Shown here one piece after another: positions 1-41,844 of a stretch of DNA of 42,435 nt; positions within the stretch are counted from its first letter, which is position 1, and the number at the start of each line of letters is the position of its first letter. Position numbers and translations under genes: made by a program. Under the pieces are notes generated by a model, which saw only the letters and a program-made list of their open reading frames with translations, was not told the DNA's origin and did no database searches. The stretch covers positions 1-42,435 of the forward strand of contig JACPRY010000002.1 in NCBI GenBank assembly GCA_016193565.1. Direction: 5' to 3'. This DNA comes from Armatimonadota bacterium (GTDB lineage: Bacteria > Sysuimicrobiota > Sysuimicrobiia > Sysuimicrobiales > Kaftiobacteriaceae).

Positions 1-28
1 TACACGATCTCCACCATCTACACAATCA
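1..28. repeat. 9-mer tandem array arm (ACACNATCT type), probably truncated by the window edge
   Basis: ACACGATCT CCACCATCT ACACAATCA; reverse complement of the array at 1129-1167 (24/27 identity). Confidence 0.8.
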
Positions 29-229
29 AGCTACATTTCCCGTGGTGTCCTACTTTTGAATGCAAAGTACGTTTGGTTTCTTCTGTTGGATTCACGCTCG
101 ATCCATGGCGAGATCGCGCGGATTCATGTGCAGGCCTCCCTGCGCTTCACGGTGCGCTCCGCGGGCGAGCCGACTCGGAGCGAAGCGGCCCTCCAATGTA
201 GGAAACTACCACATTTCCTTGTGTGGAAC

Positions 230-622
230 TTAACCTCCGATCACGGCTTCGGCTTCGATCTCGACTAGCATCTCTGGATCGATCAATGCCCGGACTTCGA
301 CCATGGTCGTCGCCGGGCGGATCGTCCCGAAGACCTCTCCGTGCGCGCGGCCGATCTGGTCCCACTGGCTGATGTTGGTCACAAAGATGCGGGTCCGCAC
401 CACGTCGGCTATCGTCGCGCCCGAGGCGACCAGCGCCCGCTCGATGTTCCGCAGCGCCTGCCGGGTCTGCCCGTATGGGTCCCCTCGGGCGACAAGAGCG
501 CCGGTCTCGTCTGTGGCCGTCGTGCCTGACACGTAGACCGTGTTCGCGATCCGGACGGCGCGGGAGTAGCCCACGATCGGTTCCCAGGGTGTGCCGCTCG
601 CAATCAGTTGCCGGCGCGCCAT
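230..622 (-). CDS. RidA/YjgF/YER057c/UK114 family protein
   Basis: GYSRAV, VSGTT, RPATTMVEV, LVEIEAEA motifs; start trimmed to ATG at 622. Confidence 0.9.
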   Translation of the reverse strand: MARRQLIASGTPWEPIVGYSRAVRIANTVYVSGTTATDETGALVARGDPYGQTRQALRNIERALVASGATIADVVRTRIFVTNISQWDQIGRAHGEVFGTIRPATTMVEVRALIDPEMLVEIEAEAVIGG

Positions 623-627
623 CGCGG

Positions 628-984
628 CTATTTGCGGAGGTAGCTGTCTTCTTTGTTGATCCAATCCTGCCGCGGCGGGCTGAAGAAGTCCATCTCGACG
701 GTCTCCTCGAGCATCTCCGCGCCGTGAGGGATGCCGCCGGGGATCAGCAGCACCTCGCCGGGCCGCAGCATCAGCTCACGATCCGGCAGGGTAAACCGCA
801 TGAGCCCTGAGATGCAGTAGGTCAGCTGCTCGTTCTCATGCTGGTGGACCGGGACAACGGCCCCCTTCGTGAACTCCAGGTACGCCGCCATCAGCCGGTC
901 GCCCCACAGCATGCGGCGCCGGATCTGTGGGTTGAGCGGTTCGGCTTCCAGCTCCAGCAGGCGCTTGTGGACGACGGATTTCAC
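628..984 (-). CDS. Cupin domain protein
   Basis: PVHQHENEQLTY and PGEVLLIPGGIPH cupin motifs; GAGAGGA SD before GTG. Confidence 0.88.
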   Translation of the reverse strand: MKSVVHKRLLELEAEPLNPQIRRRMLWGDRLMAAYLEFTKGAVVPVHQHENEQLTYCISGLMRFTLPDRELMLRPGEVLLIPGGIPHGAEMLEETVEMDFFSPPRQDWINKEDSYLRK

Positions 985-1128
985 GACGTTCCTCTCCTTT
1001 CATCGCGGGGCTGCCCGCATCGTTCGTCGTCTCAGGGGTCGCCCCTGCCCATCCGCGACGGCCTTCACCCGTCCCGCGTAAATGCGTGTTTAGACACGCC
1101 CACTTGGGGCCTGCCTATGGGAACGATC

Positions 1129-1167
1129 AGATTGTGCAGATCGTGAAGATGGTGGAGATTGTGTAGA
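1129..1167. repeat. 4 x 9-mer tandem array (AGATNGTGN)
   Basis: AGATTGTGC AGATCGTGA AGATGGTGG AGATTGTGT AGA, ending 1 nt from the stop codon at 1169-1171. Confidence 0.85.
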
Positions 1168-4697: not shown

Positions 4698-5606
4698 ATG
4701 GAGGCTGGGAAAGGGCCAATCCTCGTCATCATTAATCCCACCGCCAGCCGGGGCCGCGGCGTCCGTGCCTGGGCCAGAGTCCGTGATGCGGTGGCCTCCC
4801 GCGGATTTGTCGTCACCGAAGTCCTCACTGAACGGCGGATGCATGCCTGGGAGATCGCGCGTGGTGCCGGTCAGCAGGGCTACAGCACCGTCGTGGCGGT
4901 AGGGGGAGACGGCACTGTGCACGAGGTCATCAACGGTCTGATGCAGACAGCCCAGACGGCGCGGCCTGCGCTGGCGGTCCTTCCCGGGGGAACCGGCAAC
5001 GATTTCGCGCGGGGCATCGGCACACCAAAGCGGGCCGAACTCGCGATTCAGGCGCTACTGAACGGCACGAGAAAGCGTGTTGATGTGGGGCAGGTGAACG
5101 ATCGGTACTTCGGCAGCATCTCGGGCGTGGGGTTCGATGCCGAAACTGCGCGGCAGGCGAACCAGTGGCCGAAGTGGATCGGCGGCACGGCGCTGTACGT
5201 CGCTGCGCTTCTGAAGATGCTTGTAGCCTACACCCCGGTCGAGACGACGATCACGATCGACGGACGCGTCCAGACGATCCGGATGTTTCTACTGGCGGCG
5301 GCCAATACCAAGTGGTACGGGGGCGGAATGTTCATGGCGCCGCATGCAGACATGAATGACGGCCGCCTGGCCGTTGTGTATGCGCGCGACCTGGGGAAAC
5401 TTGAAACGCTCGCAGTGCTCCCGAAAGTCTATTCTGGGAAACACCTGCTGCACCCCAAGGTCTCACACACAACGGCCGACGAAATCCGGGTCGAGAGCGA
5501 CACTCCGCTGTCCATTCACGCCGACGGAGAGATCGTCGGTCGTGTGCCCGCGGTGTTCCGCGCGGTTCACGGCGCCCTTGAAGTGCTGGTCCCCCAACTG
5601 CCGTGA
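4698..5606 (+). CDS. Diacylglycerol kinase family lipid kinase (YegS/DagK/BmrU)
   Basis: INP, GGDGTVHEVING, GTGNDFAR, GFDA, YGGG, DGE. Confidence 0.93.
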   Translation: MEAGKGPILVIINPTASRGRGVRAWARVRDAVASRGFVVTEVLTERRMHAWEIARGAGQQGYSTVVAVGGDGTVHEVINGLMQTAQTARPALAVLPGGTGNDFARGIGTPKRAELAIQALLNGTRKRVDVGQVNDRYFGSISGVGFDAETARQANQWPKWIGGTALYVAALLKMLVAYTPVETTITIDGRVQTIRMFLLAAANTKWYGGGMFMAPHADMNDGRLAVVYARDLGKLETLAVLPKVYSGKHLLHPKVSHTTADEIRVESDTPLSIHADGEIVGRVPAVFRAVHGALEVLVPQLP

Positions 5607-5684
5607 ATCGTGAATCGTGAATGGTGAATCGCACTACCTCTTAGGGTCATCACCATTCACCATTCACCATTCACCATTCACGGC
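5600..5684. repeat. Inverted heptamer-array element, GTGAATG family, copy 1
   Basis: (GTGAATS)x4 at 5603-5630, spacer, (CATTCAC)x4 at 5654-5681; closes with GCC/GGC; contains both convergent stop codons. Confidence 0.92.
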
Positions 5685-6376: not shown

Positions 6377-7065
6377 CGAGGCGGCCTCGCCAGCTGCACA
6401 ATGCGATTCACGATCTCCTCGACGGTCAACCCTGTGGTATCGATGACCACGGCATCCTCGGCCCGTCGCAACGGGGAGTGCGCTCGGGTCGTGTCCCGCC
6501 GGTCGCGCTCTTCCTCAGCCCGCTTGAGTGACTCAAAGTCCACCCGCACACCTTTCGCAACCAGTTCCTGATACCTGCGGCGCGCGCGCTCGGCGGGCGA
6601 CGCGTCCAGAAATACCTTGACGTCGGCATCGGGGAAGACGACGGTGCCGATGTCCCGGCCTTCCATCACCACACCGCCTGACGCGCCCAGCCGCCGCTGC
6701 TCTGCGACCAGGCCCTCCCTGACGGCAGGATGGGCGCTGACGACGGAGGCTGCGTGGCTGACCTCAGGACTGCGGATGATGTCGGTGACATCCGTGCCAT
6801 TGACGAGAATTCGCGGCCGGCCGTTCGCGGTGACGAATTCGATCGACACCGACCTGGCCAGGGTCGCAACGGCACGCTCATTTCGGAGATCCACGCCCTG
6901 AGATTTGGCGAGCCAGGCCACAGAGCGGTACATTGCGCCGGTGTCGACATAGCGATACCGAAGCGCCGCGGCGACCGCCATTGCGACCGTACTCTTTCCG
7001 GCGCCGACCGGTCCGTCGATCGCGATGATCGGCGCCGCCCTGCGGCGTGCTCCGGGATCGGGCAT
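6373..7065 (-). CDS. cmk: Cytidylate kinase
   Basis: IAIDGPVGAGKST, DTGAMYR, MEGRDIGTVVFPDA. Confidence 0.96.
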   Translation of the reverse strand: MPDPGARRRAAPIIAIDGPVGAGKSTVAMAVAAALRYRYVDTGAMYRSVAWLAKSQGVDLRNERAVATLARSVSIEFVTANGRPRILVNGTDVTDIIRSPEVSHAASVVSAHPAVREGLVAEQRRLGASGGVVMEGRDIGTVVFPDADVKVFLDASPAERARRRYQELVAKGVRVDFESLKRAEEERDRRDTTRAHSPLRRAEDAVVIDTTGLTVEEIVNRIVQLARPPR

Positions 7066-10534: not shown

Positions 10535-11107
10535 TCAGGACGGCGCAGACAGTTCTTCCTGGGAAGGCGCGACACCGTCGAGCGCCTTGCGGGGGTCATG
10601 GTTGGCAAGTGGCGGAAGACTGGTGAGATCTTTGAGTCCGAAGTGCCGCAGGAACGCTTCGGTCGTCCCGTACAGGAACGGCCGGCCGGGCGCCGGGCGC
10701 CGGCCGACTTCTCGGATCAGGTACCGGTCGAGGAGCTTCTCCAAAACGTGCTCGCAGCGCACCCCACGGACCGCTTCGATCTCCCCACGCGTCACCGGCT
10801 GTCGGTACGCGATGATCGCGAGCGTCTCCAGCTGCGCATGCGTGAGCGTCTCCTGATGCTCCAGCTGGAGAAAGCGCTGCACATAGTCGGCGTAGGCCGG
10901 CCGGGTGACCAGCTGGTACCCGCCGGCGACTTCCTGAATCTGCAGGCCGTGGCCCTCGTAGTCACGGGCCAGATCAGCCAGCGCAGAGATGATGACCTCG
11001 TCGCGTGCGCCGAGCGCCTCACGTAGCTGCTGAAGCCGGACCGGGCCGCCGCCCACGAGGAGGAGGCATTCCGCGGCCCGCTTGAGCATGTCGTCGCCGA
11101 CGCTCAT
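10535..11107 (-). CDS. scpB: SMC-Scp complex subunit ScpB
   Basis: LETLAIIAYRQPVTRGEIEAVRGV, PGRP.LYGTT..FL..FGL. Confidence 0.96.
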   Translation of the reverse strand: MSVGDDMLKRAAECLLLVGGGPVRLQQLREALGARDEVIISALADLARDYEGHGLQIQEVAGGYQLVTRPAYADYVQRFLQLEHQETLTHAQLETLAIIAYRQPVTRGEIEAVRGVRCEHVLEKLLDRYLIREVGRRPAPGRPFLYGTTEAFLRHFGLKDLTSLPPLANHDPRKALDGVAPSQEELSAPS

Positions 11108-11843: not shown

Positions 11844-11943
11844 ACTGCGGAAACAAGGAAACGTGGAAACTAGGAAACGACACGAAATCAACTGAAGTTC
11901 GGTGTTTTGTTTCCTCGTTACCTTGTTTCCTCGTTTCCGCAGT
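11844..11943. repeat. Inverted octamer-array element, GGAAACNN family
   Basis: ACTGC+(GGAAACNN)x4 at 11849-11880, 26-nt spacer, (TYGTTWCC)x4 at 11907-11938 + GCAGT. Confidence 0.92.
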
Positions 11944-17000: not shown

Positions 17001-17078
17001 GCCGAAGGTCGTATGTCGAAGGTCGAATGTTGCCACGGAAATTGCTCTCGACTTTCGACCTACGACCTTCGACCTACG
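17001..17078. repeat. Inverted heptamer-array element, GTCGAAG family
   Basis: GCCGAAG GTCGTAT GTCGAAG GTCGAAT, 17-nt spacer, TCTCGAC TTTCGAC CTACGAC CTTCGAC CTACG; CTA 17074-76 is the trmI stop. Confidence 0.85.
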
Positions 17079-18297: not shown

Positions 18298-18339
18298 CCG
18301 TTTTCTCGTTTCCTCGATTCCTCGTTTCCTCGATTCCGC
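18298..18339. repeat. Orphan octamer arm, GGAAACNN family
   Basis: CCGTTTTC TCGTTTCC TCGATTCC TCGTTTCC TCGATTCC GC, just after the mutase stop; matches the right arm at 11907-11940. Confidence 0.85.
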
Positions 18340-20036: not shown

Positions 20037-20114
20037 AGGGCTTGGGGCTTAGGGCTTTGGGCTTAGAATTCCTCATCCTCATTATTAAGCCCTAAGCCCG
20101 ATGCCCTAAGCCCT
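20037..20114. repeat. Inverted heptamer-array element, GGGCTTA family, copy 1
   Basis: (NGGGCTT)x4 at 20037-20064, 21-nt spacer, TAAGCCC TAAGCCC GATGCCC TAAGCCC; contains the etfA stop. Confidence 0.92.
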
Positions 20115-21905: not shown

Positions 21906-21979
21906 GTGAATAGTGAATGGTGAATGGTGAATCACTACATCCGGTTCTTGCCATTCACCATTCACAATTCACCATTCAC
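21906..21979. repeat. Inverted heptamer-array element, GTGAATG family, copy 2
   Basis: (GTGAATN)x4 at 21906-21933, 18-nt spacer, (MATTCAC)x4 at 21952-21979; contains the dehydrogenase stop; abuts the etfB SD. Confidence 0.92.
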
Positions 21980-24368: not shown

Positions 24369-24444
24369 AGGGCTTAGGGCTTCGGGCTAAGGGCTAGACA
24401 ACTTCAAAGGGATACTAAGCCCCAAGCCCTAAGCCCAAAGCCCC
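24369..24444. repeat. Inverted heptamer-array element, GGGCTTA family, copy 2
   Basis: AGGGCTT AGGGCTT CGGGCTA AGGGCTA, 19-nt spacer, (NAAGCCC)x4. Confidence 0.92.
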
Positions 24445-24460
24445 AACAGTGGAGGACAGA

Positions 24461-26211: not shown

Positions 26212-26747
26212 GGCGACAACGGGACAACGCGACAACGCGATCAATAGCCGTTGGCGGGCTGGCCCGCGTGGAGCCCCGCGTCTGGAGAGGGGCGATGCCG
26301 GTGCAGTTTCTCTACACCGCAGGCGCGGCGGGGGAGCGGTTCTTTCAGACGCTCAAGCGCAAGGGCATCTTTACTGCCACGCACTGCGAAGAGTGCCGGC
26401 TCACCTATCTACCGCCGCGTCTCTACTGCGAACGGTGCTTTGCGGATCTCTCAGACACCTGGCGGGACGTAACACCGGTCGGGCGTGTATACACATTCAC
26501 GATCGTGCATGTTGATCGGGAAGGTGGTCCCCTTTCCTCTCCCGAGCTCGTTGCCTTTGTCCGAATTGATGGGACCGACGGCGGTCTTGTGACCAGGCTC
26601 CTGGAGATCGCTCCAGAAGACGTTCGCATCGACATGTCCGTGGAGATCACGCTCGCTCCGCCGCGCAAGCGGCGCGGTACGCTCGAGGACATTCTCGGCT
26701 TTCGGCCCGCAAGATCCGTTGCGAAGCGTCCATTCACTCGGAGGTGA
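26208..26747 (+). CDS. Second Zn-ribbon/OB-fold DUF35 protein
   Basis: CEEC...PPRLYCERC, GRVYTFT; ATGA-coupled start assumed. Confidence 0.88.
   Translation: MRRQRDNATTRSIAVGGLARVEPRVWRGAMPVQFLYTAGAAGERFFQTLKRKGIFTATHCEECRLTYLPPRLYCERCFADLSDTWRDVTPVGRVYTFTIVHVDREGGPLSSPELVAFVRIDGTDGGLVTRLLEIAPEDVRIDMSVEITLAPPRKRRGTLEDILGFRPARSVAKRPFTRR
26213..26240. repeat. Orphan octamer array (GCGACAAC x3.5)
   Basis: GCGACAAC GGGACAAC GCGACAAC GCGA, 1 nt after the TGA at 26209-26211. Confidence 0.7.
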
Positions 26748-30653: not shown

Positions 30654-31836
30654 CCCGCCGCCCGGTGCGAATCAGTCCCAGCATGCTGGTCCCCGGTCCT
30701 GTCCAGCTGACCCCGAGCGCCTCAGCGACCGTCGCGCCGACGTCCGCGAACGTCCGGCGCGTGCCCAGATCCACGCCGCGAAGGCGTGGAGTCGTCGTGA
30801 GGACCGGCGTGTATTCCCTGGAGTGATCGGTGCTGACTGTCGTCGGGTCGTTGCCGTGATCGGCCGTGATCACCAGCAGGTCCAACGGTGTCAGCTTCGC
30901 CAGCACTTCGGGGATCCGCGCGTCGATCGCTTCCAGGTCGCGGGCGTAACCTACCGGGTCGTTGCGGTGCCCATATTTGGTGTCGAGATCGACGAGGTTT
31001 GTGAAGATGATGCCGCGCTCCACCTCGCCCATCGCCCGCACGGTCTGCGTCATCCCGTCGAGGTCGTCGTGGGTGTGGATACTCGTGGTGATCCCGCGCC
31101 CCGCGAACAGATCGGGGATCTTGCCGATGCCGATGACGGGCAGTCCGGCCTCGACAGCGCCGTCCAGCACCGTCGGCTGCGGGGGCACGAGAGAGAAATC
31201 CTTCCGGCGGTCGGTCCGTGTGAACGCCCCGGGCCGCCCCACGAACGGCCGCGCGATCACCCGGCTCACCGCGTGATCGCCGGTCAGCATGGCGCGCGCG
31301 ATCTCGCACAGTTCGTACAGTCGGCTCACGGGGATCACGTCCTCGTGCGAGGCGATCTGGAAGACGCTGTCGGCCGATGTGTAGACGATTGGATAGCCGG
31401 TCCGCAGGTGCTCCGGACCGAGCCGCTGGATGATTTCGGTTCCTGAGGCGGGAGCGTTCCCGAGCGTTCTCGTCCCGATCTTCCGCTCAAACGCGGCGAT
31501 GATCTCTTTGGGAAATCCGTTGGGATAGGTGGGAAACGGCCGCTGCAGGATAATTCCCATCAGTTCCCAGTGGCCGGTGGTGCTGTCTTTTCCCGCCGAC
31601 TGTTCTGTGAGTTTCCCGAAGGCCCCGGCCGGATGTGGCACAGGCGCGACACCGCGGATCGGCACGATGCGGCCCAGGCCCAGCGACTCCAGCACCGGCA
31701 CCTTCAGGCCGCCGACGGAGGCGGCCGTGTGCGGGATCGTGTTGCTGCCCTCGTCCCCGTAGCGGGCCGCATCGGGGAGTTCGCCGACCCCGGCGCTGTC
31801 GAGCACGATGATGATCGTCCGGGTGAACTCGCTCAC
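30622..31836 (-). CDS. deoB: Phosphopentomutase
   Basis: [43 protein letters not shown]; GTGA-coupled to xerD. Confidence 0.95.
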
Positions 31837-32762
31837 GATCTCTTCACACGAAGCCCTTCCCGCGGGTGGGCCTGGCGGTAGACTCGGCGCAGATGATCGC
31901 GGGTGACGTGCGTGTACACTTGCGTGGTGCTGATCGAGGCGTGGCCCAGCATCTCCTGGACCGCGCGTAGGTCTGCGCCGCGTTCCAGCAGATGCGTGGC
32001 AAACGAGTGACGGAGGACGTGCGGCGTCAGCGGCTTTCCGATGCCTGCCCGGCGCGCGTAGATCTTGATGAGTTTCCAGCATGCCTGCCGGGTCAATCTG
32101 CCGCCCCGGCGGTTGGTGAACAGTGCCTGGCCGCCGCGACCCCGTGTGAGCGGCGGCCGCGCGTACAGGAGGTAACCGCGAAGCGCCCTGACCGCTTTAC
32201 TGCCGACCGGGACGATGCGCTCCTTGTTCCCTTTGCCGATCGTGCGCACGACTTCGTGGGCCAGGTCCACGTCGCCGAGGTCAAGGTTGACCAGTTCGGA
32301 CACGCGCAGCCCGCTCGCGTACAGCAGCTCGAGCATCGCCAAGTCCCTGCTGCCCGCCGGCGTCGTGGGATCGGGCATCGAAAGCAGGAGGCCGACCTCG
32401 TCGATCCTGAGCACGTTCGGCAGTTGCTTCGGTAGCTTCGGGGGGGCCAGATCGAGCGTCGGATCGTGCCGTAGAACCTCTTCGCGCAGCAGAAAACGGT
32501 AGAAGGCACGAATGGCAGCCGCACGCCGCTTGATCGTGGCCGCCGAGCGCCCGTGCCGGCGCAGGGTGAGCAGATACACGGTGAGTCCTGCCCGGTCGAC
32601 GTCCGCAGGGCTCTTGGCGCCGTGCGAGGTCACGAATGCTGCAAACTCAACAAGATCGCACCGGTAGGCATCGACACTGGCGCGCGCCAGTCCCTGCTCA
32701 GCCAGCGCATACGCCAGAAAGGCCTCGATGTGCGCGGCAAAGGGGACACGGCTGCGGCTCAT
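31833..32762 (-). CDS. xerD: Site-specific tyrosine recombinase XerD
   Basis: [32 protein letters not shown]; nudF-xerD-deoB context. Confidence 0.93.
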
Positions 32763-41768: not shown

Positions 41769-41844
41769 AGGCCAGATCTGAGAGATCTGTGCCTCACCTC
41801 AGGTGCCAGGCACCTGAGTGCCTGGCACCTGAGTGCCTGGCACC
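41769..41844. repeat. REP-like palindrome cluster upstream of RAYT
   Basis: AGGC-CAGATCT-GAG-AGATCTG-T-GCCT hairpin, then three GTGCCWGGCAC palindromes at 15-bp spacing (41803, 41818, 41833). Confidence 0.85.

Follow-up and report, generated by a model that had tools for sequence, protein, structure and literature searches.

Near the beginning of the 42,435-nucleotide (nt) stretch of Armatimonadota DNA analysed here (contig JACPRY010000002.1; the window in what follows), a cupin gene and a RidA-family gene lie between two arrays of tandem 9-nt units, which are inverted relative to each other and which we refer to as arms. We conclude that the two arms are best read as halves of one hairpin element, with ~1.1 kb in the place of a short spacer, because the sister genome, L001, has both arms adjacent to each other without the genes. 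Our preferred explanation, to which we assign a probability of roughly 60%, is that a native palindrome similar to repetitive extragenic palindromic (REP) sequences was passively split by gene gain at a variable site beside a tRNA-Pro gene. The first-pass annotation of the stretch had described the inverted arms around the cupin and RidA genes, and had likened them to hairpin elements with ~1.1 kb substituted for the spacer; both observations stand. Its further suggestion, that the arms may delimit the capture or exchange of cargo genes, is unsupported, as discussed below.

All of the features concerned are on the minus strand. The GGDEF-like gene (1169–1717; Pfam GGDEF, E = 1.8e-8) has its stop codon at 1169–1171, and 1 nt separates this stop from arm 1 (1129–1167), which reads TACACAATC TCCACCATC TTCACGATC TGCACAATC on the minus strand. 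Tandem Repeats Finder describes arm 1 as an array of period 9 with 4.3 copies, and a repeat search located four copies at 9-nt spacing. Arm 2 (1–28) reads T GATTGTGTA GATGGTGGA GATCGTGTA on the minus strand, and in the forward reading of positions 1–27 it comprises the three units TACACGATC TCCACCATC TACACAATC. This left arm is truncated at position 1, as had been cautioned, and position 1 is probably the end of the contig rather than an arbitrary cut, since the longest contig recorded for the identical RidA protein measures 42435 nt, as does the window. When positions 1–27 are set against 1139–1165, 24 of the 27 nt (89%) are complementary, with 1111 nt between these two segments (1101–1111 nt between the arms). 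The two-unit motif CACNATCTNCACNATC has five zero-mismatch matches in the window, every one of them within the two arms; at two or fewer mismatches there are 11 matches where 0.82 would be expected, a number that none of 100 shuffles reached. Likewise, the inverted score observed when one border is compared with the other was met by 0 of 300 shuffles. Given the complementarity, the motif counts and the shuffle tests, the pairing of the arms is not due to chance. As an array, the unit GAT.GTG is confined, within the window, to the two arms. A nearer partner for arm 2 was also considered within the window, where the predicted fold of 1–240 pairs it with ~105–119, but this was rejected because that region has just one unit with 1 mismatch (at 112) and no second 9-mer array.

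The locus that carries the one-element reading is that of L001, which is the window's sister with a Shimodaira–Hasegawa-like approximate likelihood ratio test (SH-aLRT) value of 100 on the ispH+engA tree (17 rows), and which was the best locus of our search, with 82% identity in the GGDEF-like protein. After the GGDEF-like stop codon, L001 has one arm-1 unit, ATCTGCACAAT, which matches window positions 1141–1131 (the innermost unit of arm 1) at 11/11 nt. It is followed by 52 nt containing a GC-rich, terminator-like stem and a T run, and then by five arm-2 units (of the GATTGTGNN type), which read GATTGTGTT GATTGTGGA GATTGTGTC GATAGTGTA GATTGT.. Positions 10610–10636 of L001 match window 28–2 in register at 24 of 27 nt (89%; blastn E = 1.8e-5). 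Arm 2 of L001 runs directly into tRNA-Pro at 10659, the tRNA gene lying 8 nt past the last TAGATT. This stretch folds with z = −3.25, and in the fold predicted for it the one arm-1 unit is paired with arm 2. L001 is thus the kind of relative that the first-pass annotation had proposed to look for, with a short 9-mer hairpin after the GGDEF-like gene and the next gene, here tRNA-Pro, immediately behind it. No partner arm was found in L001 beyond arm 2, and the cupin and RidA genes are absent. By homology with L001, the sequence to the left of position 1 of the window should begin with approximately two further GATNGTGNN units, behind which tRNA-Pro(GGG) is expected.

By manual count, arm 2 of the window and arm 2 of L001 agree at 18/18 core positions (GAT.GTG) and at 6/9 variable ones, which suggests that it is the unit core, rather than arm-to-arm pairing, that tends to be kept. 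Of 14 relatives, 10 have a TATAAT or TATAGT box 8–13 nt upstream of tRNA-Pro; L001 has none, but in its place a −10-like TAGATT is formed at the junction of arm-2 units, so that arm 2 may supply the promoter of the tRNA. Arrays of other units were observed at the corresponding place elsewhere. An 8-mer array (CGCGNTTC) stands directly upstream of the tRNA-Pro −10 box at L016 12005–12054, and a similar one is found at L009 10565–10586, 45 nt past the GGDEF-like stop, where the L009 contig ends within the array. Tandem arrays upstream of tRNA-Pro are recurrent, and assemblies break at them.

The split element belongs with a class of hairpins that the window contains in several copies. Using Tandem Repeats Finder, we identified six complete elements (5602–5681, 11849–11938, 17003–17078, 20037–20114, 21906–21979, and 24369–24446), each built from approximately four units of 7, 8 or 9 nt, a spacer of ~18–30 nt (a length derived from the program's array coordinates), and approximately four inverted copies. 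All six fold into long stems whose stability was equalled by none of 200 shuffles (z-scores between −4.4 and −10.4). They occupy intergenic gaps directly after stop codons; in two cases the neighbouring genes are convergent and in the other four they share a strand, examples being the gap between acyl-CoA dehydrogenase and the β-subunit of electron transfer flavoprotein (ETF) and that between ETF-α and methylmalonyl-CoA mutase. Other elements in the window lie 0–21 nt from stop codons, several arms include the stop codon itself, and two solo arrays (18299–18337 and 26213–26240) directly follow stop codons. The sequence of the unit varies between copies: GTGAAT (twice), AGGGCTT (twice), GGAAACNN (twice, with one solo array counted), CGAAGGT, and, in the 9-mer arms, GATNGTGNN. 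The split element shares with this class its two inverted arrays and its position at a stop codon; the short spacer that allows a local fold is missing from it in the window and present in L001 (52 nt, z = −3.25).

The 9-mer family of the window's arms also forms regular two-armed hairpins between ispH and engA, at L009 7796–7930 (z = −4.8) and L016 7740–7882 (z = −2.75). Both have spacers of ~55–62 nt and are without cargo, and behind each hairpin come a stem rich in GC and a run of T; the ispH-engA gap of the window is 53 nt only. The family is thus found at different loci in different genomes, and, given the regularity of the L009 and L016 hairpins, the arms in the window are bona fide halves of one family element. 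Another site, the gap between the convergent plsC-like and diacylglycerol-kinase genes, has a hairpin in both the window (5602–5681; unit GTGAATC) and the distant relative L016 (5755–5842; unit GTGATTC), and in L001 (6754–6780) a single (AAGCCCT)x3.9 array inside which both convergent genes terminate. At this one site there is old conservation plus fast turnover.

The gap into which the cupin and RidA genes would have come is variable throughout the relatives. We found 52 homologues of the GGDEF-like protein, aligned 30 of them with it (alignment A1), and obtained 19 loci from a profile search of genome contigs. Three loci (L017–L019; 33–37% identity; labelled Betaproteobacteria, delta proteobacterium, and Enterobacteriaceae) are without synteny and contribute neither to the gap counts nor to the tree; the contigs of L002 and L009 stop short of any tRNA, and these two loci are therefore not in the gap counts either. 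The syntenic order ispH-engA-(plsY)-GGDEF-like is shared by 16 of the 19 loci, and the 14 that show both the stop codon and the tRNA have the order ispH-engA-(plsY)-GGDEF-like-[gap]-tRNA-Pro(GGG) on one strand. The distance from stop codon to tRNA is 41–112 nt in six of these 14 (L001, L011–L015), 291–295 nt in three (L006–L008), and 702–1845 nt in the remaining five (L003, L004, L005, L010, L016). Since the short gaps sit on four separate branches of the tree, a short gap is likely the older state and the genes in the window a gain. The long gaps contain a 251-amino acid open reading frame (ORF) with a signal-like N-terminus in L003; a hypothetical gene, an endonuclease V and a metallophosphoesterase in L005; an EamA transporter in L010; and an AlkZ-like glycosylase in L016 (the named families by Pfam), and the gap of L004 is of about the same length as that of L003. 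Compared with L009, L016 has gained 1.6 kb between the stop codon and the 8-mer array, with no inverted arm there. None of the 19 loci contains the cupin or the RidA gene (tblastn, E ≤ 1e-5), so that these genes were not found in relatives lacking the arms. We conclude that this gap, with the GGDEF-like gene on one side and tRNA-Pro on the other, is generally variable as a site and holds different genes in different relatives.

Two further observations concern this locus. The gaps of L006 (6521–6815), L007 (4654–4944), and L008 (5728–6018) are filled by a common conserved non-coding stretch of 291–295 nt, which could be a small RNA or a leader. Separately, in the window and in 13 loci, engA and the GGDEF-like gene are separated by plsY; it gave no tblastn match in L001, L014, and L015, where engA and the GGDEF-like gene nearly abut.

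Within the window, the interval between the arms has a simple layout. A non-coding leader of 144 nt (985–1128) extends from arm 1 to the start of the cupin gene (628–984; 118 amino acids; Pfam Cupin_2, E = 1.1e-11), whose stop codon lies 5 nt ahead of the RidA ATG. The gene of the RidA (Rid/YjgF) family (230–622; Pfam Ribonuc_L-PSP, E = 9.4e-33 on 230–664) likely starts at the ATG at 622, although its ORF is open to a TTG at 664, and from its stop codon a non-coding trailer of 201 nt (29–229) leads to arm 2. The NCBIfam models of the Rid family match the RidA gene, all below their curated cut-offs. A promoter-like site, GTGACA-17-CACAAT (1186→1158), shares sequence with the first unit of arm 1 and is directed towards the cupin gene. 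Searching 1–1300, trailer and leader included, against Rfam gave no match at the gathering cut-off or at E ≤ 1, and neither the trailer (1–240, z = −0.88) nor the leader (975–1175, z = −0.84) folds better than shuffles. Direct repeats around the 201-nt trailer yielded nothing notable, and no tRNA genes were found in the window.

The cupin and RidA genes look native to the genome, because their third-position guanine-plus-cytosine (GC) contents (0.87 and 0.78, respectively) are in the range of the other genes in the window (0.71–0.90), the overall GC profile of the window is flat, and their closest named homologues are labelled Armatimonadota. The cupin belongs to a conserved family of 118 amino acids that is 64–82% identical in records named Armatimonadota; RidA homologues, 74–97% identical, occur in many metagenome genomes, with one named (Armatimonadota-labelled) record at 79%. 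Region 1–1170 gave no phage match and, in the search for a plasmid origin, only four weak matches (69–70% identity over 13–29% of the query). For homologues of the GGDEF-like protein (87%), cupin (98%), and RidA (97%), one common source is recorded, its longest contig being given each time as 21823 nt, and a closer relative thus seems to have all three genes on one contig of that length. Because this second source appears to have the same arrangement, an assembly artefact is improbable, and the arrangement in the window is probably genuine. Cupin and RidA homologues also occur in pairs with matching longest contigs of 54553 and 39288 nt, with no GGDEF-like match listed at either. These matching lengths hint that, in more distant relatives, cupin and RidA form a module located elsewhere.

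The GGDEF-like protein itself belongs to a conserved family of ~180 amino acids, small and membrane-anchored, with one N-terminal hydrophobic helix. In place of the GGDEF motif, alignment A1 shows RLDTNQF; the domain is degenerate, and the protein is probably not an active cyclase. At the other end of the window (41803–41844), in the gap before its last gene, there is a 15-nt unit, GTGCCTGGCACCTGA, in 2.8 copies, each unit containing a short palindrome.

Taken together, the explanation that we favour would run as follows. The arms would be the two halves of one native intergenic palindrome, each made of tandem 9-nt units with the core GAT.GTG, and elements of this build are common in the genome of the window and in its relatives, with stand-alone hairpins as the norm. 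By analogy with REP sequences, the role of these hairpins is most likely exerted in the RNA, where they would terminate transcription or protect the 3′ ends of mRNAs by stabilising them. This copy would have lain between the GGDEF-like gene and tRNA-Pro(GGG), arm 1 abutting the stop codon and arm 2 the tRNA, when in the lineage of the window a cupin-RidA module of two genes, with its own 144-nt leader and 201-nt trailer, came into the spacer, most likely by recombination via the conserved flanks or by illegitimate insertion. With the two ends of the ~110-nt gap taken up by the arms, an insertion leaving both the gene end and the tRNA intact has to fall between them, and the arms would therefore be passive bystanders. 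We prefer an order in which the hairpin came first over one in which arms and genes came together, because stand-alone hairpins are common and the cargo has no mobility gene. Were a single transcript to run from the promoter-like site at arm 1 to the tRNA, the arms might still pair with each other over 1.1 kb. Long-distance pairing of this kind occurs in the processing stems of rRNA operons.

Several of our results weigh against this explanation. Arms at this site were seen in a single comparison genome, L001, and there arm 1 has only ~1.2 units, which makes for a lopsided hairpin. The L001 spacer has no significant similarity to the interior of the window (126–324 of 500 shuffles were as good), and therefore the borders of the insertion cannot be placed, and the event resembles a replacement of the interior rather than a clean insertion. 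Insertion in the lineage of the window and loss in L001 each take two events, so that parsimony alone does not decide whether the arms preceded the cargo. Finally, L005 has an inverted repeat of 26 nt (81% complementary; 4759–4784 and 6481–6506) near both borders of its 1.8-kb insertion, which was reached by 1 of 300 mononucleotide shuffles and is GC-rich and partly self-palindromic. This repeat is a borderline case, and it leaves some room for inverted repeats going together with insertions.

The same facts can be arranged into other histories. If arms and cargo formed one mobile unit, with the arms as terminal inverted repeats (TIRs), it would have landed in the common ancestor of the window and L001, and the latter would have lost the interior and kept a short remnant in the manner of a MITE (miniature inverted-repeat transposable element). 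Such a history takes as many events as the one we prefer. It accords with the presence of the 9-mer family at another locus (ispH/engA) in L009 and L016, which implies spread or repeated origin, with the dissimilarity between the L001 interior and that of the window, and with the apparent joint travel of the cupin and RidA genes, to judge from the longest contigs (54553 and 39288 nt) that their homologues share. However, neither the cargo nor the window has a transposase, all other elements of this build seen here are short with no genes inside (the L009 and L016 copies among them), and 1–1170 matches no plasmid or phage beyond weak coding similarity; we consider this history unlikely. We are similarly doubtful that the arrays were separate features that never formed one hairpin, arm 1 being a solo array at a gene's 3′ end and arm 2 an upstream or promoter array of tRNA-Pro, with a complementarity that stems from their shared unit core. 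Solo arrays do exist directly after stop codons (at 18299 and 26213), the array immediately upstream of tRNA-Pro in L016 and L009 is an unrelated 8-mer one that lacks an inverted partner, L001 barely exceeds one arm-1 unit, and the better preservation of the core in arm 2 (18/18 as against 6/9 positions) points to selection on the unit and not on pairing. But the absence of any other GAT.GTG array from the window, the regular two-armed hairpins that the 9-mer family makes in L009 and L016, and the pairing of L001's lone arm-1 unit with arm 2 in the predicted fold all speak for a single element.

More active roles for the repeats were considered as well. The hairpin could itself favour insertion, if the palindrome were extruded or stalled replication, were cut near its loop, and were then repaired with the capture of foreign or ectopic DNA, for which no recombinase would be needed; the spacers of such elements would then be favoured landing sites, and this would be a version of the first-pass proposal that does without a recombinase. 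The insertion is indeed placed exactly between the arms, the L005 insertion has its borderline inverted repeat near the borders, and spacers of the 9-mer family are larger and more variable (52–62 nt) than those of the 7-/8-mer elements (~18–30 nt). Yet this is a single case, a position between the arms is expected anyway when they stand at both ends of a ~110-nt gap, inverted repeats at the borders of the L003, L004, L010, and L016 insertions do not exceed chance, and none of the other solo arrays is matched by a distant partner belonging to it alone; we therefore rate such a mechanism as quite improbable. Least credible of all is that the segment is an invertible element, inverted at its repeats by a recombinase, or that the assembly is chimeric and was joined via the repeat. 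Invertible DNA is characteristically marked by inverted repeats on either side of a segment, arm 2 is cut by the contig end, and the contig of another genome ends within the GGDEF-like gene (P0009, residues 1–120 only), so that assemblies do break in this region; against this, the window yielded no invertase gene, the GGDEF-like, cupin, and RidA genes appear to share one 21823-nt contig in a second genome, and the longest exact complementary run between the arms is, by eye, 13 nt. A run of 13 nt is shorter than the k-mers usually employed in assembly.

The proposal that the arms act in gene capture or exchange has to be judged against the same body of evidence. A Pfam scan of 45 proteins of the window found no transposase, integron integrase or invertase. 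The sole recombinase in the window (31833–32762) is a tyrosine recombinase of the Phage_integrase family with Xer-type N-terminal domains, and is encoded ~30 kb away among housekeeping genes. Five relatives (L003, L004, L005, L010, L016) have unrelated genes at the same gap without tandem-unit arms, and when seven loci were tested for inverted repeats at the borders, none above chance was found at L003, L004, L006, L010, and L016; for L003, L004, L010, and L016, 85–288 of 300 shuffles scored as well. Nor did we find a second long-range pair: none of the solo arrays examined for this (three in the window and nine in seven loci) has a long-range partner of its own, one of those in the window matching only an arm that already has a near partner. 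We therefore think there is only a small chance that the tandem-unit palindromes of this clade are sites of gene-module movement, whether by break and capture in the spacer or by arms and cargo moving together and then decaying, with cupin-RidA as the first "loaded" copy to be observed, L001 as the "unloaded" state, and no dedicated recombinase. If it were true, it would amount to a route of gene capture that does without a recombinase.

Among known systems, REP sequences and bacterial interspersed mosaic elements (BIMEs) are like the hairpins of the window in being short, imperfect palindromes present in many copies per genome, located in intergenic gaps right after stop codons, whether the neighbouring genes are convergent or belong to one operon, and forming stable hairpins. 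They differ in that each arm of a window hairpin is a tandem array of about four 7–9-nt units, with the unit differing between copies, and in that no REP-associated (Y1) transposase was found among the 45 window proteins scanned. In one account, canonical REPs are defined by a tag, GTAG or CGTC, that is conserved and by a Y1 transposase associated with them, and transcription termination and mRNA stabilisation are given as proposed roles (PMC3733652). In the window, GTAG occurs within some 9-mer units. A second relevant group is the TAACTGA repeats of Beggiatoaceae, which are sets of 2–6 tandem 7-nt units, nearly all intergenic, near gene starts or ends and in some cases overlapping the ends of ORFs; they consist of a single heptamer repeated in direct orientation, for the most part immediately upstream of start codons, with 1 of 170 sets inverted (PMC4679880). 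The elements of the window differ, since two inverted arrays forming a hairpin are the norm and there are several unit families. Our literature search, which did not extend to subscription journals, found no description of hairpins with tandem-unit arms, the nearest being direct heptamer arrays and classical REPs. Intergenic tandem heptamer repeats are also known from cyanobacteria, as short tandemly repeated repetitive (STRR) sequences.

Comparison with mobile and integrative systems gives partial likenesses only. Integron cassettes with attC sites resemble the locus in that genes are tied to an imperfect palindrome and gene content at one site varies between relatives; unlike them, the window has no integron integrase among the 45 proteins scanned, the GTTRRRY core is absent from both strands of both arms, and the palindrome is split around the genes rather than placed after each gene, the empty site of L001 keeping both arms. 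Transposons with TIRs and MITEs share the bracketing of a segment by inverted repeats and, as in L001, a short form free of cargo, but here the empty site retains both arms, and no transposase was found in the 42-kb window. Variable islets next to tRNA genes offer the likeness of conserved flanks, with unrelated genes of 0.7–1.8 kb in separate lineages and a short gap in others; they differ in that the gap of the window lies 5′ (upstream) of the tRNA gene and has no adjacent integrase. Integrases usually act at the 3′ end of a tRNA gene.

If the arms are passive, as we think likely, then the cupin-RidA arrangement would be a case of ordinary gene gain at a variable intergenic site, and the split palindrome, being older than the insertion, would be useful as a dated marker of that gain. 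The wider point concerns the lineage itself, whose records are labelled Armatimonadota, with one relative placed in Candidatus Sysuimicrobiota: in this little-studied group, REP-like hairpins with arms of 7–9-nt tandem units fill many of the intergenic gaps.

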